DNA from: Adineta vaga
Lineage: Eukaryota > Animalia > Rotifera
Reading direction: 5' to 3'
DNA: 64,000 nucleotides
Assembly: GCA_021613535.1 (NCBI GenBank)
Contig: CP075495.1
Coordinates: forward strand, 12,834,001-12,898,000
Shown here piece after piece: positions 12,544-36,086 of this stretch. Position 1 is the first letter of the stretch. Each line of letters opens with the position of its first letter. Under the pieces are notes generated by a model. That model made no database searches. It was given only the letters and a program-made list of their open reading frames with translations, and had not been told where the DNA came from. The position numbers were made by a program, and so were the translations under genes.

Positions 12544-13203
12544 GATGTTTGTTTTGTTTTTCTTTGTTTGATCAACACAACATTTTTATGTTAATTATAG
12601 GAGATCAAAACTATGATCTTCAAAAATAACTATCTTTGTTTGATAATAAATTTGAAGGAAAAAGCATTTCTATTCGAAGATCCTTAATACTGATAGAATT
12701 CGCAATATGGAAAATGAGTTACAATGCATTACAATACATTTTCTATTGTTCGATTAGTATCTAACAAGGATGTAAGAAGGAACAACACATTTGTACAGAG
12801 AATATCGTTTGAAAAGATCTAGACTATGGAAATTTGAATAGAATACTGATTGTTTTCCTTTCATATGAAAGTATTATCGTACAGAAACTAATTTGTAAAT
12901 CACTATATAGACTTTCAATTATGAAGTAAAGAATTCAAAAGGTTACTTAATCATAAGTACTATCGAAACATTTAAGAAGCATAGTTTTCAACGTTGAATT
13001 TAGATTAACAGAACTCGATTGATATGATGATTAATGTATTTTTAGTAGTTTCTGTTTAATGAAGATAAAAGCGAAGCATTCCTTTGTTGTAAAAAAAAAC
13101 AAGACAGTATTATAAATTAATTTTGTTGATCGTTATATAAAAGCAATAGTAATCATCACAGCTACGCACACACTACGTAGTTCAGCAATAGGTTATCACA
13201 TAT

Positions 13204-14590
13204 TTAACCATGTTGCCAAAAACGATGGAAAAGTGATGTATTTGGAGTAATGTTATGACTTTCTAATTGAGTAATTTGATCAACAGTTAAACGCCATCCT
13301 AAAGCACCAGCATTTTGTTCAGCTTGTTTACCATCACGAGCACCACCAAGTGGAATGACACCTAAAACATATGGATTAAATCATTTGATATTTAACATCG
13401 TTTTGAATGAATAGAATGAAGCGGATACATCAGTAAGATGATAGAATCTGCTAATACTCTATATGAATGTAGAATAAAAATCATCATACCTTTACAAATG
13501 ACATAATTCAACGCGATCGAAGAGACACTAACATTAAGTTTCTCAGCGATACCACGCATCGTTTGTAATAAGGGTTCTAATTCATCCATATTGACATCTG
13601 AGAATTTACGACCAGCAGGCGGTGGATTTGCCTTTGAATATTTACCTGTCAGACGACCCATTGCCTAGTCGATAGAAAGAACAATCGGCAATCATTTATG
13701 ATAAAACCTTTCTACGAAATATCAACTTACAAGTGGAGAATATCCAAGAACAGCTATACCTCGTTGATGACATGCTGCAATTAATCCTGATGTTTCTGGT
13801 GATCGTCGAAGAAGTGAATATTCCACCTGATTCGATGCAAGTTGAATGCCATGTTTTTGTAAACAATCATACATTTTGATGGTATCGGCAGTTGAATAGT
13901 TTGAAACGCCAACAGTTTTCGTAAGACCAAGTCTGACAGCTTCAGCTAAGGCATCTGCAACAACTTCAATCGAACGAAGATGAATCGGACCATGGATTTG
14001 ATAGAGAGCTACACAATCCACCTAAAAACGAACAAAAAATACTTTAGTCACTATAATAAAGTCATCAAGAATGATACATACCTTTAATCTATCAAGACTT
14101 GCTCGAAGTGCATTGATTAATGAACTTGGATAAGAGATTTTATATGGCATTGGAAGAAATTTGGTTGCAAGAACAATATCTTCTGTTCCAGCAACTGGAT
14201 GATTTGCTTTGTATTTTGCAATACAACGTTCACTAAAAGATGATACTTTATTTTATGTAAAACTATTATAATATATGTAACCATACCTTTCACCATTTCC
14301 GTAAATTTCAGCCGTGTCGAATGTATTGATACCCTTGGATATCGACATATCAAAAGCTTCTTTAGCTTTTACATCAAGTTCATCGTTCCAACCCCATTCT
14401 TTTCGATCTCCCCATGCCCAAGTACCGAGAACTATATTATAAATACATAAAAAATCAATAGAAAATGGCCGCTTTATTGGTTACCTAAGGGCGACACTAA
14501 AATTTTATCGGCAAGTTTTATTTTAGTTTCGGCAGTTGGAATAACGTCATTAGGAATACACACATTATACGAAGAATTACTAGATGCCAT
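13204..14590 (-). CDS. Aldo-keto reductase, pyridoxal-reductase-like/fungal-bacterial type; multi-exon
   Basis: Spliced product carries LGTWAWGD, FDTAEIYG, LATKF, LYQIHGP, VGVSNY, LASNQVEYSLL, YSPL(A)MGRLTGKY, IALNYVICKG and NAGALGWRL, ending FWQHG*. The catalytic D/Y/K/H residues are present. Confidence 0.9.
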
Positions 14591-14982
14591 TATTCTAGTG
14601 GTCGATGATTTAGTATAACACCGTAGATAGTATCTAAGATATGGAGCCTTCTTTGCAAAATGAAAAATAACTCGCATATTTATTTTATTTAGTCATGTTG
14701 TTTTCTTTCTTTATTTAAAAATACCGCAAATGGATATAAAGGATAACCATTGGATACATGGTATCGATAGGAGGCGCTGTTCTCGAATGCATTTACTTGC
14801 ATCTGTCGAAGAAACTTTACCAGTTTTTTATTTCAACTAGTGCAACTCTACTTGACATTCGATCAAAGGCATTTTTACATACCGCAAATCTTTTCTTTCT
14901 CCATATTCGCTAATATAGAAATGACTTTCATTTGAGAAAAAGGTTCTTTTTTATGTTTTTTTATTTAAAAGAACAAAACATA

Positions 14983-17900
14983 TTAGAAAAAGTCATTGCA
15001 AGAGCATTGACCATTCTTGGAAAAATGATGGATTCTATTTGTATCTCGAACAATAATTTCACATTGACGAATAGCAGCAATGAGTTTCGTTGCACTATCT
15101 ATCAATAAAAAGAGGATTCTTAAACAAAAATAATCAATAATTAATATGATGACTTACGACAATCCCCACAAATGCGAAGATTCTTTGTCAATTGAATTCG
15201 TGATGTATTCGGTTTTAAAACAAAATTCCATGCAATAGCAAGTTTTTCACTGTGTCCACAAAGTACCGATGCAACTGTTTCATCTTGATTGATTCGTCTT
15301 GTGATCCAACTGGAATCATATTGGTGACCATTTTGAACAAGTTCATCCGACATTTTCTCGAGTTCAGCATAAATTTCTTTCGATCGAGGATGTGATTGAT
15401 CATGAGCTCGAAATTGCTTGAAATAGAATAATTTCATATGTTTTATAATAAAACAATTATTGATTTATACTTAGACTCACATAAACTTCTCCATCAATGA
15501 CAGTCCATGCAAGACCAATTTTTTTCTTTGCACCGGATCGATTTAATTCATTCCTGATTTCAGACACCTTGTCCATATCACCTATTGATCCATAAACATT
15601 AGCAAGAAGAACTCCACCTGATATTATTGAATCCGACAATTTGGGAAAACGCTCTTTCATACGATCATAAGTTTCTTGTGATAAATGAGAATTTTTGGCA
15701 TTTCGAGCACCGGATAATAACGATACTAAAAATAAACTTATTCGAATCTATTTAATTAAAATAATAATAAACTAATACAAAGAACAAATAAATGGATCTT
15801 AATATATCGCCTTAAACGCGTAACCTCTTGGATGGTGAGTTCGAACTCAGTATTTCAAGAAGTTCTGATTGCCGTCTTAAAGAGCATAGTCCAAAGTTTA
15901 GGGAAAGATATTTGGTTTGTCTTTAAATTGTTGTAATTCATATAAAATTTATGGAAACAAATGTACTAGTCTGACATGAAAAAATTGAACTTATTTATGC
16001 CATATATTCTTGTAACCGTTTTATTAAAGCGGTTTGTTGTTTGCAGAGTTCGTCACGATAAATTATGCTAGCGAGGATGGAAGTATCCTTTCACATAATC
16101 ATTAGCTTTTGAATACGTTCTACTTGTGTGATTTGAGCTTAGATAATACTAGTATATTTATTTCGTCATCGCGTTACAAGAAGTCAGTATTGTTTATTTT
16201 TCACCAATAAGATCCAACAGTTTTCTTCTGAAAGTATATGCCTAAAGCTAGTTTTTCATGAGCTATCTGACGAATATATTTTTATTTTAGAAAGGTTATA
16301 ATCTGTAAAAAAATTTCGTAACGTGATGACGTTTTTCGCATTTTTTCCTTGCTTTTTATTTTAATAGCAGTTAGAATTTCGAAAAAAATGAAGTTTCATA
16401 TTTCTCAACTTAATCATATGGATTCAATGCAGTTTTCCCGTTGATTGCGAATATATAATTGGTTTCAGATTTCAACCCTACTTTTAGGAAAAAAAATCAA
16501 GAAATACCTTGAGTGCTTTAGATGTTGATAAATAACCTGACTAATTTACTACGGATGATTTTTGACTTGACATGACGAATTGTACCAAACTTAACGTTTA
16601 TTCTCTACAATTATGGCAGAAGGTACTTTATCTTAACTTTATGTAGCTGGAAAGGCTTCCAAAATAGGTAGTGCAAACTCTGGTTCGAAAACTCGCATCC
16701 TCGCGTAACGAAACCGTCATCGCGTTACATTAATAAAAGCGACTTTTTATGAGAATAGGCTGTCTATTCAGGAAACTGGTTTTAGTTATAAACATATCAA
16801 GGTGTGAGCTACAAAAGATCAGATGAATGTCTCCTTTGATGTATTACAGATCAGCAGAAAAATAGAAAAGACACATAGCAGTATCAAAATTTTGTCCTTT
16901 TTTCATCATCGTGTTACCACATGTATTTTATCAATAGTTTTCGAATGGTGCATTCAAACTAGCTAATTTTTTTAGGATTGATAGATGGCAATGAGATACG
17001 TATTCTGGCAACAGATTAAAATTTTTAAAGGCACTAGTCTATGAGAAAAGATGCGTACACTCCGGCCAAAACGTCATTGCGTTACGCGTGTTTAAGCCGA
17101 TATATATATCAGAAAATCTTCTATCCGTTTAAAACGATTATTGAGATATAGTGAATAGAATATCAATACTAAATTTTAAACAACCAGTTTTAGTGGAAAT
17201 TAAGTTTTATGTTTATATTTATGATTATTATCTACTATTCATAAAAACGATATAGAATATCACTTACAATACATAGGTGCTGAAGGTAAATTAGATGATT
17301 CATATTCATTGATTAATTGTTGTGCTTCTGGGAAACAAAACGATCGACTAAGACAGTCAGTCTAAGAAGAAAAAAGTGTTCAAGTCTTTGAAAATCCAAT
17401 AGATATTTTATTGTACCATAACTGTATAAATTCGTTCTGTTTTCATTTGAATTTTCCTGAATATTGGAAAAGCTTTATCAACCAGTCCAGCATGTGAACA
17501 TGCGTTCAAAACACAAATATAAGTAACTTCATTGATGAATTCATCGGGAACTTGTTCATAGAGTTCAATGGCTTCTAAACCTTTTCCATTCAAACCATAA
17601 GCATTAACTATTTATCAAAATATTTTTTGATTTATTTTTAGGAAAAAATCGAATAATTCTTACTCATTGCTGCATATCCAATAGTATTTGGTTGACGAAT
17701 TTTGTTGAAAATTTCTTTTGCTCGATCGACGCAAGAACTCTTTCCCTAAATTTTGTTTATGGTTTCGTTTTGAGAAAGAAAAAAACCCTTTTTCTCCAAA
17801 CCTACCCACATATGAATCAATGCATTGTGTATCTGATCATCAATCAAACAAGATTGAGGCATTTGTTGAACAATAGATTGTGATAATTCAAAATCACCAA

Positions 17901-19188
17901 TTTGAGCTAAAGATTTTATAATACAAGTCCAAATAATATGATTAATTTGAATATGATTTAATTTCATTTCATGAAAGAAATTTAATATTTTAAAAGAATT
18001 ATGTTCTTTTAAATATCCATTAATCATAACAGTATACATTGATAAGGTTTTGTCTGGTAATTGATCGAACAAGATTTGAGCATAGTTTATATCATCACAT
18101 TTAACTAATGCATCTAATAGAGATGTTAAAAGACGAAAATTCGAACTGAATAGTTTTGTAATATTTTTCGAATTTTTTTTAATCAAATTTAATGTTTCAT
18201 CAGATTTTAGTTGAGCGCATGCATTGAAGAAAAGTGTTAGAACACTTTCACTGGGCTTTTCGATTTGTTGAAAGAGTTCAATCGCTTTATTTTCCATTTT
18301 ATTTTCTATATATCCTAAAGACAAAATTCGTTTTACTAACTGAGATTTATATCTTACGAAGAAGTATATACCCTTCATTACTGCAGCGTACATCGGTGGA
18401 GTTTTATTGACTAATGAATGAAATAATCTTTCAGTTTCTTTTATATCACCACATTTCGCCAATGCATCTAATAGAGATGTTGAAAGATGAGTATTCGATT
18501 GAAGTTTGTTGTGAATATCATTGAAAATTCGTTTTGTTAGAAGTAATGCTTGATTAGTTTTTAGTTGAGCACATGCATTTAATACAAGTATAAATATAGT
18601 TTCATCAGGATTATCAATTTGATCAAATAATTCAATAACTTTGTTTGCTTGATGATTTGTAATATATCCTGATATAAAATGAATTGATTTTATATGAAAT
18701 AAATGTATTTAGATGAGATTTACCTTTGAGAAGAGCACCAAACATAGGTAAGGTTTTTCTCTTTGACAAATTAAATAATTCTTCAGCTTTTATTACTTGA
18801 TTACATTGCACTTTAAAAGCGACAAAGAGAAAATAGAACAATTTCGTTTTTCTAAATATTTACTGTAGAAATGAATTAAAGATGTTAATAAATATGAATC
18901 TTTATCCAAACGATTTGAAACAATATTATGAACCATTGTTCCACGTTGAAAATCACGTAATCCTGCACATGATTTTAGAACTTGTGTCAAAACTAAATTG
19001 GAAATCTGATTGATATTCTTGTTAGAATGCTTATCAAATAATTGTAATGCTTGTTTGAATTGTTTGTTCTTATTCATCAATTTCATTTGATCAACTAAAT
19101 TCCATTCATTCTTTGGAACATAAATAGAGCGTTTAACAGAAAAAATATTGTTGATTGATAAGCGATAAGTAAATAACTTGTTCAACAT
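14983..19188 (-). CDS. PLS-like pentatricopeptide-repeat protein with C-terminal E/DYW cytidine-deaminase domain; about 10 exons
   Basis: PPR helices ([50 protein letters not shown]....EAQQLI). A PG-box-like KKIGLAW is followed by [44 protein letters not shown] and GQCSCNDFF*. The frame is preserved across the introns I checked. Confidence 0.93.
15803..17106. mobile_element. Putative non-autonomous DNA transposon (~1.3 kb, imperfect TIRs) inside the 1.54-kb intron (15726-17267) of the PPR-DYW gene
   Basis: Left end is TATATCGCCTTAAACGCGTAAC (15803-15824). The right end reverse-complements to TATATCGGCTTAAACACGCGTAAC (17081-17104). Both ends sit in TA context, there are five internal copies of CGTCATCGCGTTAC, and there is no long ORF. 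Confidence 0.7.
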
Positions 19189-30375: not shown

Positions 30376-33094
30376 TTAATCCGTTGGATATCGTACTTTA
30401 TCAAACCAACCGTTGAGCATCGTACGTGCTTCACAGATGATATCTGGTAAACAGTATTCATTTGGTAAAGCTTGTTTAACATTTTCTTCAAAATAGGAAA
30501 AAAATGGAAACCATATTCTCATTCGATTTTTATCCCGTTGAAAATATGTTCGATTATTTGCCAAACTAAAAAGCAAAATATTTTGTTTTACATTGTTAAG
30601 TAAGATATATCTTACGTATGATAATATATAAATAAACGGGAACTAAGTACCCATGCAATAAGAATATCAATGGAATAATGTTGATGACCAGCCAAGATGA
30701 AAAACATCCCAGTTAAAGCCATAATCCAACTGAGAAAATGGAGAAGATGGTATGAACGTGGGGAATCTTAGAATAAAGAAAACAGAGTTTTTTTAATAAC
30801 ATGTTTTTACTTAGCATATCATTTTTCTATATCAATATCATTTTTAACATCTTGATATATATATATATCCGCAACGGAACTATACGTTCTTTTTTTTTCT
30901 TCGTGTCATCAGACTAATTTTCTAACTAATGATATGAAGTTAAGTAGCATAATTTATCTTACTAAATTTTAAAAAATATCTTTATAGATCAAAATGAAGA
31001 AAATTTTTTCCGTTTTAAAATAATGTATCAATTAGAAAGAAACAAGTCTTTCATCTACTATTCTTTATCAGCAAGAATAATAAGTTCATGATTTTTATTA
31101 TTCAGAAAATCATAATGATATGAAATTATATATAAATAGATAAATGTCAAGATAACTCATGACTGTTGTTACTCAATAAAATTCTAATCTTCAAGAAAGT
31201 CTTCCAATATTTCTAAGACATCGATATCATCATGTGTATTATACAGATTATATGAACTGTATAACATTCTTTTCCTTAAGAATATCTAAAATAATGTTCA
31301 ATTAATATCATTCTTTACATACATTCGTTGATGAAATGTGTTGCTAGTACAAGTGTACAAGTATGCCCACTATATAAATAATCACCACATGTTTTAACAC
31401 CGAATGATGACATTCCTTGACCAAGAAAAATTAAAGTTGCTTTTTTTAAACGAGCAGCAAAGCTAGCCAATCTCTACAATAAAAGAAATCAATTAAATAC
31501 AATAATTCATATTGAATTAAAACATACTTCTGGTCGACAATCGGTTGTTTGTGTAGCTACTGGTAATGATGTAAAAACCATTGTTAAACTACGAAGAAAA
31601 TAAAGTGCAGCCGCAATCGCAAATAATCGACGAATAATAATCAGTCTAAATAGAAAAAAACAAGATATTTTGATAAATATTTGTAATTAAAATATTCATT
31701 ATGAAGTATATATTGATGTAAGTATGCGTTTAAGTACGGCAAGTAACGTAAGATTAATCTTCCATGTTGTTTTAGGTGTTTATTTTGTTAATATAGATTG
31801 AATTACTTACGATTATTCAAAAAAAAGTCTTATTATAGAAAAGATGAAAGATAAAATTCAATATTAAAGACAAATATATTTACCGATGTCGATGAAGAAC
31901 TAAGATCATAATGAGAGTAAGCACTTCGATAAGAATGATTTTTTCAGTAACTGAAAATGCCCATGGAATTTGTTTAACATTGTCCAGAATAAGATCAGGT
32001 AATGGTGGGAAATTTTTTGGATCCGGTAAACGTTCATCAACGATCGTAATAATAAATGAACAAAAATATACAGTAGATAAGGCAAGAAGACATGCCGATA
32101 GAGTCTTCTTTCGATCGGAACGTATTGAACCAACAAAACAACAACCTGTTATTGGTTGATCTTCAATTTGATCAGCTGGTGTACGATGTGGATTCAATAA
32201 TGGATTTGTAATACGTTGTGCTGTCGATGTTGATGAGGGTGGAAGAATATTAACTGACGTATTTGATGTTGACATACTATGCGAAGAAGATCGTCGATGA
32301 TTTTGTTGATTATTTGTAGAACGTGTCATTGTTAATGGTGCACGTTCGATCAATATAGTTGTTGGTGTTGCTGTTTGAGTTTGATTTGTGTTTGTTGATG
32401 TTATTGTTGAAAAATTTTGATGTAATTGTTGATGATGATGGTCTTCTTGTTGATTCGGATTCATTTGTACGGTTGTATGTGATGCTATTGATGACAATGA
32501 TGAAGATGAGGATGATGCAGATGCTGATGATTGCGTTGTTGGCATTATTGGTACTGCCGCTGCTGCTACAGCTGATGATGATGGAGCAGATACACGAGAT
32601 GTTGTAGGACGAACTTGTATCAAAGGAGAAAGAGGTCGGAGTGGTATGGGTGCTTGTAATGGGGGTGGAGTGAAATAAGATGATGCTGTCATTGGTAGGG
32701 ATTGTTGAAATTGTCTTTGATGTAGTGATGATTGTCGTTGTGTCCATATATGATAATTACTTGAATAGAATTGTTGTAATTGTTTAATTTGTAACCATAA
32801 TTCATTACTTTTTGTTGTACCTTTTAAATTTAAAACATCTTCTTCTTTTAAGTTCATTAATCGTTGACCATTCATACGATGTTGAGAACAAATCAAATCG
32901 ATACAATCCTCTAAATCACATTTTATAAGCCATTCTTTAACTTGTTCTATTGTCCACGTCGATGGATTCGTTGTTGACAACGGTGGCAATGATGATGTAG
33001 AAAATGATGATGGAAGTGAAGAATGTAAGGCATTTGATGATGTTAAACTATTAGTCAATTGATGTGAATTAGCAGGTGGAGTTGAAATAAGCAT
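30376..33094 (-). CDS. SAM-domain sphingomyelin-synthase-family protein, paralogue 1 (long Ser/Thr/Gln-rich linker)
   Basis: SAM (WTIEQVKEWL...MNGQRLMNL.E.D), D1 PPLPDLILD, RRLF...LYFLRS.TM..TSLP, D3 CGDYIYSGHT and D4 GHQHYSIDI. Confidence 0.9.
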
Positions 33095-34191
33095 TCTTTT
33101 CGCTTTTTCCTCTTCTAAAGAGAAAGAAAAATAGTATAAAAACAGGTTTGGAATGTTTGCAGAAAATGAGAAAAAGAAAAATCAATCTAATCACTCTCAC
33201 AGAATATCTACTAAATCAGATTGAAAGAAATATGTCATGATGTGATTAAAATGTCTAGAATAGAAGAAAGATAGAGGAAGATAGACAGCAAGAGAGAACG
33301 AGAAAGAAAAACAAAAAATTTTCTGACTCGATGATAGATGAGACGAAAATTCATAAACAAAAAATCAACAATTCTTATGGATCTGTTTAGTTTAGTGTTA
33401 TGCTCTATCGGTAATATCTGTCAGAAGAGATATACGCATAAATCAGACACATTCAGTTGACATTCACTTTCTCGAGTACGTTATATTAATTCAAATAAAT
33501 TTGTCTATTGAAATAAATAGAGTAATTGATGTTGACACTCAAAGAAGTTCAACAAAAACAACAGAAAAGAAAACCTTATTACTTGCTACACGTCACTTCA
33601 TTTTACGACTCAACCTAGAACAAACTTTATTGCCTATTTGTTCGTCTCTTCGAGTTACCCTATCTTTTTTACGACATGTAAAAATGACAAGATTTACACT
33701 ATTAATCAATATTGATTGATGGATAGGAAAATGAGTCATTACTATAGATGACGTTATTCTAATAATGTAAACTTTGATATCTATTTCCTTCAAGTAAAAC
33801 TCAAAAACAAGGTACAATATAACATATATTAATCTATTCTACTATATTCCAAGAGAAAATCATTTGTAGTAACTCGGCCTTCGTTTTCCTCTATATCTCA
33901 AATTACACAAGAAAAACACCAGTCTTATTTTACTTACTGTTCTTATTTACTTTAATTTCACGTAATACGGTTTGTTATCAGCTTAGTTTTTTAACGTCGT
34001 CATTTGATAACTATCTGAAAATAAAAATAAAATAAAATAAAATAAATATATATCTGTTAGTTATTCATTCCAAACAAAGGCGAAAAGAAAAAAATACGTC
34101 ATATATAACTGCAGTAATTCATATAGAAGAAAGATTATAATAAAAAATAAATATCAACGTCTCAATAGATGTAAGTAACAATCACTTATTG

Positions 34192-36086
34192 CTATTTTTG
34201 TTTTTGTCTATGAATATTACGATTATTTTCATCACATTTTACTGAAGATCTCTCATCGATGATGTCTTCATGTATATGGAATGATTTTAATGGCCATGGC
34301 ACACGGAATACATTAGGAACCATACATTGAACATTTTTTTCAAAATATGAAAACATTGGAAACCATATGGATAAACGTTTATCTGATTGTGAATGTAAGA
34401 CAGCATTATTTGCTAATGAATGATAATATAGAAATAGACGACTTGTCAAAAAGAATGCAATAAAGACATCAATGGTATAATGTTCATGTGCAGCAAGAAT
34501 TAAAATCATACCAAATATATTACAAAACCAAGAAAGAAGATGTACAACATAGAAATCTGATGTTGTATCTAGAAAACGAAATGAATTCGTATGTCTTTTA
34601 TGTTCTTATTCAATTCTTACATTCTGTAATACAATGATTTAATAGAGTTAATACAACTGTATGGCCAGAAAACATATAATCACCACATGAACGTACACCT
34701 TGAATGGATAATCCTTGAAAGAGAAAGATTTGCAGACACCGAGTAAAGATTTCTATAGAAGTGCCATATTTCTAAATGAAAAACGAAACAAACAAATAAT
34801 ATTTAATAAATTTGAGAACAAAGAGAATGTGTAACTTACCAATGGAGTGCAATCAAGGTGATGACCGGGTACCTGAAATATATTTGATAACGAAATACAT
34901 GATTTGAATAGATAAATTTTAATTAAGGGAAATATGTGAGAGATATTTTCCCCATACTGATAATAAGAACAAAATTTGTTTGTTTTTTTTCGTTGTCTTT
35001 AACAAAGTAGGTGTCTATTCTATCACTTACACTTAATGATGTCACTAACATTGTAATAGATCGAAGAAAAAAAATTGTTCCAGCTAACGTAAAAAATCTT
35101 CGTAATATGATATTCCTAAATGAAAACAAAAAGAAAAGTAAAGCAAGGTGAAAGTATTTGAAAAGTTTTAGTTTCTATTTACCAATATTTGTGAAAAATC
35201 AAGATTAATAAAAATGTCACACTCATTATAACGATAATATATTCACTAACAGAAAATGCCCATGCTAAAAGATAAAGGAACATGTCTTTCTATATCATTA
35301 AAATAGTTAAATAACTTACAAATATGTGGAATATTATCAAGAAAAAGATCGGGTAATGGTGGATATCTAACAATAAAATGATCAGATCTACATTCCGAAA
35401 GATCGTATTCATTACTTTTGTACATTTGGAACACGATTATGTACAACAACCATAATAAATGATGTCCAAATTCCACTAATTAATGCATAAATAAAACTAA
35501 CTAATAATTTTCGTTTTTCACCTTTTGCAGTATTAAAGATTGGTTTTTGTTCAGAATGAATTTTACATGAACTGTACATATTATGTACATTGGATTCAAG
35601 TAAATGTGTTGGTGATAATGGTGAATGATTATGTTTAAAATTATCATTATCAAACGACTGTTGTTTCATTGATGTTAACATTTGAATTTGTTCATTCGTA
35701 TCATTGTGTAAATATGGTGTAGAAATACTTAATGGTGAATAGAAATTCTTCTCTTGACATTGTAATAAACGAATATGATACCATAATTTTTTGACATCAA
35801 CTAAACGTTGAATAGCTAATGGTGCTTGTCTAAGATCATCTTCTTTCATTAATAATAATGTTAAACCATCAATACCATTTTGATTACAAAATTTATCCAC
35901 AAAATTTGATAAATTTAATGAACAAAGCCATTCTTCAACATCTGTTGTTGTCCAAGATAGAACTGAGAATTTGTTCAGATTCTTTTTAAAATAAATAAAT
36001 ATATGTTATAAATAGATTTCACAACATTTATTAATACATACAGTATGAAAATCACCATTCGTCTTTGATTCTCTTAATTTAGTCAT
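34192..36086 (-). CDS. SAMD8: SAM-domain sphingomyelin-synthase-related protein (SMSr/SAMD8-like), paralogue 2
   Basis: SAM ([10 protein letters not shown]...[22 protein letters not shown]), [28 protein letters not shown] and [14 protein letters not shown] are SMSr-type signatures. It includes a 33-bp exon [11 protein letters not shown] (34841-34873). Confidence 0.85.

Follow-up and report, generated by a model that had tools for sequence, protein, structure and literature searches.

A PPR-DYW gene of Adineta vaga, a bdelloid rotifer, and evidence for C-to-U editing of mitochondrial cytochrome b transcripts

What does an animal do with an RNA editing protein of the land-plant type, and on which RNA would it act? 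The question is raised by a gene at positions 14983 to 19188, minus strand, of a 64,000-nucleotide (nt) stretch of the Adineta vaga genome (contig CP075495.1, positions 12,834,001 to 12,898,000; referred to below as the window), which a sequence-only reading had taken for a pentatricopeptide repeat (PPR)-DYW protein and a candidate C-to-U editor in a metazoan. DYW genes were recognised in rotifers in 2011-2013, and no substrate has been assigned to them since; a survey of 2026 goes no further than speculation about what they do. Genes from A. ricciae and Philodina roseola were reportedly described by Schallenberg-Ruedinger et al. in 2013, which may bear on priority. The occurrence of such genes in bdelloids, as the reading stated it, is borne out by the host, A. 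vaga, and by its published family of 191 PPR genes with 60 DYW genes, 58 of these expressed (PMC13386178; papers are cited by PMC number), and bdelloid DYW-subgroup PPR genes are mentioned earlier in PMC3239186, PMC4202320 and PMC5295000. The family is thus already published, and the window gene by itself is an added member. Mitochondrial editing has been suggested for rotifer DYW proteins (PMC3239186), while a UV-stress role for the A. vaga genes is offered as speculation with no compartment named (PMC13386178). Sections 7 and 10 of the latter give no target, compartment or editing site for bdelloid DYW genes, and no rotifer mitochondrial editing site was found in the searchable literature, including the accessible text of PMC13386178, PMC4202320, PMC3239186, PMC5295000, PMC7194472 and PMC5633667, with most subscription papers outside its scope. 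Our observations indicate that what is new lies on the substrate side, namely cob S219F and S273F in an animal mitochondrion.

The evidence that carries this comes from cytochrome b (cob). The mitochondrial contig L015 is A. vaga-like, its cob protein being 98.3% identical to that of A. vaga (P0157), with about 14% divergence over the stretch tested. Both proteins read KVESHW and PEWYSLF, with Ser at two sites that hold Phe in all 13 other alignment rows, four non-rotifer animals included; the A. vaga mitochondrial DNA (mtDNA) was sequenced from PCR products of DNA (PMC3426538). The advance prediction was that L015:5699 and L015:5861 would be C in runs of DNA and T in those of RNA. The stretch compared, L015:5620-5950, covers 331 nt of cob with about 28 C, in four sequencing runs that contain the window gene. 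Runs X1, X5 and X6 are treated here as likely RNA because introns are skipped in their contigs, the type of run being a guess and not recorded as RNA. Both predicted sites, cob positions 656 (S219F) and 818 (S273F), are T in X1 (depth 3164) and X5 (depth 2787), which come from two studies, and C in the DNA runs X9 and X10 (one sample). The RNA-type runs differ from the reference at 41 places and the DNA runs at 39, with equal counts for every type of change except C>T (5 versus 3); the other 39 differences are common to all four runs, and 35 of the 38 listed fall in third codon positions (40 rows of 41 were displayed). The X5 cob contig, at 1115 nt, is close to the length of the 1086-nt gene. 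The comparison of mtDNA with RNA that the reading had proposed has therefore yielded two C-to-U differences at the two predicted cob sites in 331 nt, from contigs of unmatched clones. We hold with high confidence that C-to-U mRNA editing in A. vaga mitochondria is real and, a step less firmly, that the PPR-DYW family performs it.

The window gene runs from an ATG at 19188 to a stop at 14983, and its ten exons, separated by nine GT-AG introns, give a coding sequence of 2205 nt and 734 amino acids (aa) with no internal stop. In the contigs of X1 all nine introns are skipped, with CT..AC ends, which supplies the spliced transcript that the reading had asked for; four are skipped in X5, three in X6 and none in the DNA-like run X9, which reads through. 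Three joints, those over introns 4, 5 and 8, were flagged 'between: not known', and the last of them has only 27 letters on its short side. The short, host-style introns noted earlier hold for eight of the nine (53-64 nt, GT-AG) and fail for intron 7, which measures 1542 nt. The parts of the gene are as follows.

18864 to 19188, minus strand: exon 1, with the start codon, presequence-like N-terminus and first PPR motifs; splice joint in X1 and X6
18724 to 18810, minus strand: exon 2, PPR S-13 and start of P-12; from the gene model, splice joints and motif assignment
18372 to 18668, minus strand: exon 3, PPR P-12 to start of P-9; from the gene model, splice joints and motif assignment
17806 to 18314, minus strand: exon 4, PPR P-9 to S-4; Pfam PPR E=8e-14, splice joints
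17664 to 17745, minus strand: exon 5, PPR S-4 and start of P2-3; from the gene model, splice joints and motif assignment
17417 to 17607, minus strand: exon 6, P2-3, L2-2 and start of S2-1; Pfam PPR E=3e-7, splice joints
17268 to 17361, minus strand: exon 7, S2-1 and start of E1; from the gene model, splice joints and motif assignment
15726 to 17267, minus strand: intron 7, 1542 nt, skipped in X1 and X5
15481 to 15725, minus strand: exon 8, E1, E2 and PG-box-like segment; Pfam E motif, alignment to 9kfx
15417 to 15480, minus strand: intron 8, 64 nt, joint 15416-15481 in X1 and X5
15158 to 15416, minus strand: exon 9, E+ region and DYW deaminase core, with HSE at ~15254-15246 and CGDC at ~15170-15159; Pfam E+ 6e-8, DYW 5e-14
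14983 to 15098, minus strand: exon 10, C-terminal part of DYW with the second zinc site (HHF, CSC), DFF and stop; Pfam DYW 4e-11, joint in X1 and X5

Intron 7 is not short because an element of about 1.3 kb sits inside it (~15803-17104), with imperfect inverted ends and beside TA repeats; it is probably a non-autonomous DNA transposon. Summed X9 DNA depth is 345-705 inside this intron versus about 120-350 across the rest of the gene. The element carries a 15-mer repeated at 16164, 16715, 16904 and 17072, with an inverted copy at 16317, and has many diverged copies in the DNA run and no second copy in the window; a DNA contig joining 15805 to 17100 is a possible empty site.

The PPR array and complete DYW domain that the reading recognised, with HSE, CGDCH and HHF..CSC..DFF, emerge from both the gene model and Pfam, which on single exons returned PPR at E=8e-14 and 3e-7, E+, above its cut-off, at 6e-8 and DYW_deaminase at 5e-14 and 4e-11, with the E motif (E=5e-6, 27.2 bits on part of an exon) just below the cut-off of 27.3. 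The array comprises 14 motifs in L-S-P order over aa 64-524, several P motifs being 31 aa long, and ends in P2-L2-S2, after which come E1, E2, the PG-like segment and the DYW domain. The catalytic zinc site, HxE(x)nCxxC, is intact (H665, E667, C693 and C696, in HSE at aa 665-667 and CGDCH at aa 693-697, the His codon of the latter being split by intron 9), and the second zinc site is present as H697, H720/H721, C728, C730 and D732 (HHF at aa 720-722, CSC at aa 728-730); the C-terminal tripeptide is DFF, a variant of DYW. The PG-box-like segment of the reading does align, but its Pro is absent (KIGLAW versus EPGCSW in plants). The A. steineri orthologue, used as query, matches 9kfx, a synthetic editor of solved structure, from aa 135 to the C-terminus, E1-E2 included (E=1e-102), and the OTP86 DYW domain 7o4e at E=2e-32. 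A single-sequence fold prediction for this orthologue gives a helical PPR array (pLDDT ~70-90) and does not inform the DYW fold, because pLDDT is below 50 over aa 556-735. The N-terminus is as first described, with four K/R and no D/E in aa 1-25. Net charge is at least +3 over the first 22 aa in 35 of the 41 family members with a comparable N-terminus, and similar composition occurs in only 12 of 684 internal 25-aa windows of the window protein, and the presequence-like look that fits the mitochondrial targeting first raised as a possibility is seen across the family; composition suggests that the N-terminus is a mitochondrial presequence.

Are there more sites of the cob kind? A motif scan of metagenome contigs gave 40 mitochondrial contigs of 1.5-14.7 kb, T-rich, with one coding strand and 12 gene clusters under translation table 5, and when the contigs' cob alignment is searched, the seven best matches are cytochrome b proteins from named bdelloids. 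A radical deviant was defined as a one-base change with BLOSUM62 of -1 or below in a column conserved to at least 85%; frames were read from stop to stop, so that a few columns precede the true start, and the counts omit five cox1-only contigs (~1.5 kb) and gene-by-gene near-duplicates, leaving contributions from 31 of the 40 loci. C-to-U would repair 32 of 58 such deviants, against a 14.7% share of opportunities (binomial p 9e-13, only indicative because the cells are not independent), whereas the transition control, G>A, accounts for 0 in 3814 opportunities. The base at position -1 of the repairable C is T in 28 of the 32, against a background of 66%, and these deviants are spread over 26 columns, of which six show them in two lineages. 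Among contigs with at least 1500 aligned codons, a repairable site is present in nine of 16 and, at the strict cut-off, absent from the other seven. For cob proteins we counted 53 repairable deviants in 7966 cells from 67 bdelloid-type sequences and 0 in 1536 cells from 24 named non-rotifer animals, the within-group controls giving 0/861, 1/944 and 2/645.

Individual candidates from this survey are recorded here as predictions. In L015 they are 1385 (cox1 S384L, beside HFHY), 4790 (nad1 S210L, with Ser also in L024 and L037), 7655 (nad5 S37L) and, weakly, 506 (cox1 A91V). Residue 127 of the A. vaga cob protein is Leu, against Phe in every other bdelloid row of the alignment, which may mark a third cob site or an error in the sequence. 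Contig L007, with ten radical sites including PEWHFS in cob, has the most predicted sites of any bdelloid-type mtDNA and is the best candidate for a heavy editor; its cob Pro216 also occurs in non-rotifer animals and does not have to reflect editing. Near the start of cox1, in the barcode region, column 30 has His (CAT) for Tyr in L004, L018, L031 and L039, a candidate recurrent site with A at -1. All 21 covering loci read HFHYA in cox1 where mammals have HFHYV, and the short cox1-only contigs also have Ala, so Ala may be a genuine substitution here rather than the mark of editing throughout the clade. Those five contigs showed no Ser/Leu, Ser/Phe or His/Tyr deviant, which is uninformative, and length was rejected as a proxy for RNA versus DNA in cob: short and long contigs do not differ (4/9 versus 22/45), a split that is uninformative for contigs of unrecorded kind. 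ARAGORN, under bacterial settings, found no tRNA on four mitochondrial contigs.

Homologue searches of the window gene return bdelloid proteins first (45 of 52 matches in one of them), and 119 of the 120 best matches to the DYW region of the A. steineri orthologue are named Adineta or Rotaria. The window protein forms an orthogroup with P0002 and P0006, one from A. steineri and one from A. ricciae (SH-aLRT 99; 80% and 75% identity), in a quick, unrooted tree of 44 rows, three of them from plants, over 345 C-terminal residues. HxE/CxxC and the zinc ligands are kept in all three Adineta orthologues. Across 124 family members, C693 is found in 119, C696 in 121, C728 and C730 in 119 and D732 in 116, and 118 end in Phe; H665 and E667 are in all 124 by construction, the members having been selected on that motif. 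The domesticated foreign gene proposed by the reading is supported in so far as the gene is spliced and intact in three Adineta species, and needs correction in that it is no lone gene but one of 60 or more paralogues. As to origin, rotifer DYW proteins have been placed within plants (PMC13386178) and grouped with Naegleria (PMC4202320). Eight A. vaga DYW paralogues (P0043, P0046, P0101, P0104, P0112, P0127, P0129 and P0150) have neighbouring locus tags, I4U23_026839-027122, and the tree, which includes five of these, unites them in a single young clade whose members differ in their code residues, a pattern that suggests recent tandem expansion.

The public gene model falls short of this protein. 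Residues 1-610 are 100% identical to A. vaga I4U23_009762 (P0001), which continues into intron 8 and, at 617 aa, stops short of the DYW domain, so that the catalytic domain is missing from the public model. Other bdelloid database proteins stop alike, P0011 at intron 8 and P0003, P0005, P0010 and P0018 at the preceding intron. Published bdelloid DYW gene counts are probably too low, because the public model lacks the DYW exons and these other proteins end at like places.

Set beside known systems, the bdelloid one is likely plant-type organellar editing in an animal host. With land-plant PLS-class PPR-E1-E2-DYW editors (moss PPR56, the synthetic 9kfx, the OTP86 DYW domain in 7o4e/7o4f, and DYW1 in 7w86) it shares PLS triplets, P2-L2-S2, E1, E2, HxE..CxxC, the second zinc site, a presequence-like start and a target spectrum of Ser>Leu, Ser>Phe and His>Tyr with U at -1; the rotifer gene differs in its animal host, its nine introns, several 31-aa P motifs, IG for PG and DFF for DYW, with about 37% identity to an angiosperm DYW stretch. 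Like the DYW-PPR proteins of Naegleria gruberi and Acrasis kona (PMC4202320), with few verified mitochondrial C-to-U sites and more genes than sites, it is a family outside plants, but those hosts are protists, and bdelloids have the larger family, with sites that seem to change from lineage to lineage. Among animals, the known forms of mitochondrial RNA editing comprise tRNA editing, U insertion in calcaronean sponges and U-to-C change in placozoan cox1 (PMC5633667); post-transcriptional repair of mitochondrial transcripts is shared with these cases, and no case in the accessible text of PMC5633667 involves codons repaired repeatedly by C-to-U change in connection with PPR-DYW proteins. With the bdelloid DYW genes of PMC13386178 the window gene shares both family and species.

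We propose, as a likely account, that bdelloids run PPR-DYW-guided C-to-U editing on mitochondrial mRNAs, that horizontally acquired editors let damaging T-to-C mutations fix (for example at the Phe after PEWY in cob) at lineage-specific sites, and that the window gene is one such editor. Drawing on plant and protist PPR-DYW biology, the basic N-terminus would direct mitochondrial import, the PPR array would bind RNA at one base per motif with S2-1 facing position -4, and the zinc deaminase would convert C, restoring codons such as Ser to Phe or Leu. The gene would be one of many paralogues that jointly perform the editing, and acquisition and expansion of the family would have been followed by T-to-C mutations persisting in mtDNA. 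With somewhat less assurance we hold that the window gene, intact and expressed, encodes a PLS-class PPR-E1-E2-DYW protein which probably enters mitochondria and there probably acts on one specific C of a mitochondrial transcript by deamination; on balance we predict this paralogue to be an active mitochondrial editor. The first reading's candidate is supported overall, but nothing ties this paralogue to cob 656 or 818.

Several observations weigh against this account. The RNA nature of X1 and X5 is inferred, the clones are unmatched, and contigs, not reads, were compared, so that only the majority base is seen. The PG-box Pro and the terminal Trp are both replaced in the window protein; the PG box is variable outside plants (PMC13386178), and the terminal Trp covers the second zinc, Ala in its place lowering editing (PMC13324415). 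When all deviants are counted (columns conserved to at least 80%), C>T is not in excess, at 2.0 per 1000 versus 4.4 for G>A, and the C-to-U signal is confined to radical changes. The paralogues, 60 published and the unannotated window gene, far exceed the predicted non-silent sites, 0-10 per contig. The prediction of a target from the PPR code, which the reading had recommended, was run and singled out none. With code and register from PMC10482289, the prediction from the P and S motifs of the window gene is a purine at each of -4, -10, -13 and -16, with a pyrimidine at -7 and an A at -9. Cob 656 and the predicted nad1 site score 5/6, a value also reached by 5.6% of the 585 C in L015, against 4/6 for cob 818 and 3/6 for the predicted cox1 site, the nad1 and cox1 contexts being those of L015 and not of A. 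vaga itself. Motif S-4 (NN) mismatches the G at -7 of cob 656, and the code matches carry little information because Thr at position 5 is the family default in S-7 (85/125) and S2-1 (99/125). Counting in favour of the account, the code positions of S-4 and P2-3 vary among the 125 paralogues in the canonical pairs ND, TD, NN, SN and TN and hardly differ between the three orthologues. A four-motif subset that scores 4/4 at the predicted cox1 site (0.7% of C) was dismissed as evidence because it was picked after the sites were seen.

The alternative that survives best is that the family edits and the window paralogue does something else: RNA stabilisation, cleavage, help in translation, supply of a DYW domain in trans, redundancy, or editing of silent, tRNA or rRNA sites. 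It is the main rival because genes outnumber predicted sites, an excess discussed likewise for Acrasis and Naegleria (PMC4202320), and it draws on the want of a clear code match between the window protein and a cob site. We consider it unlikely, as none of the catalytic or zinc ligands has been lost in any of the three orthologues and the excess of genes over sites is an upper bound, since silent, non-coding and clade-wide sites escape the search, which took in 9.2 kb of a single related mtDNA.

Far less probable is a role beyond the mitochondria, with RNA from nuclear genes, transposons or viruses as the substrate. The large size of the family and the suggested UV-stress role with its unnamed compartment (PMC13386178) would fit such a role, but the basic, acid-free N-termini of 35 of 41 members, of a composition rare among internal stretches of the window protein, and the existence of a mitochondrial substrate class argue against it. 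We give marginally less credence again to the idea that the cob differences involve no editing and stem from strain differences or a nuclear copy of mtDNA. The DNA and RNA runs do come from different studies with clone identity unproven, and the DNA side is one sample; yet the four runs agree at 39 other places and part only at two predicted C of about 28, and the X9 contig is 12,795 nt long at depth 985, versus about 120-180 for contigs on the nuclear gene. A T-bearing strain would need two reversions without any silent change, because the C is shared by L015 and Ser is present in P0157. Plant contamination or a pseudogene has nothing in its favour and is refuted: the short GT-AG introns are spliced, the frame is open, an ephrin gene lies nearby and there are rotifer orthologues.

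That ephrin gene (Pfam 4e-33), within the same window, agrees with the earlier placing of the locus among metazoan genes. Directly downstream of the PPR gene, at 13200-14900 on the minus strand, lies an aldo/keto reductase gene with introns (Pfam E=2e-19). Positions 31880-36005, minus strand, hold a pair of SAM-domain-like frames and, after them, sphingomyelin-synthase-like exons; by eye these look like two related genes in tandem, with Pfam confirmation for the PAP2_C exon only.

With two A. vaga cob sites and a list of candidates across bdelloid mtDNAs, the question of what bdelloid DYW proteins act on becomes directly testable. If our reading is true, a foreign gene family is now part of animal mitochondrial gene expression and gives constructive neutral evolution a test case that is not a plant. 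Some codons would then be misread when bdelloid mitochondrial proteins are translated from DNA, a concern for phylogeny and barcoding, and the family would provide natural guide-free C-to-U editors working in animal mitochondria.

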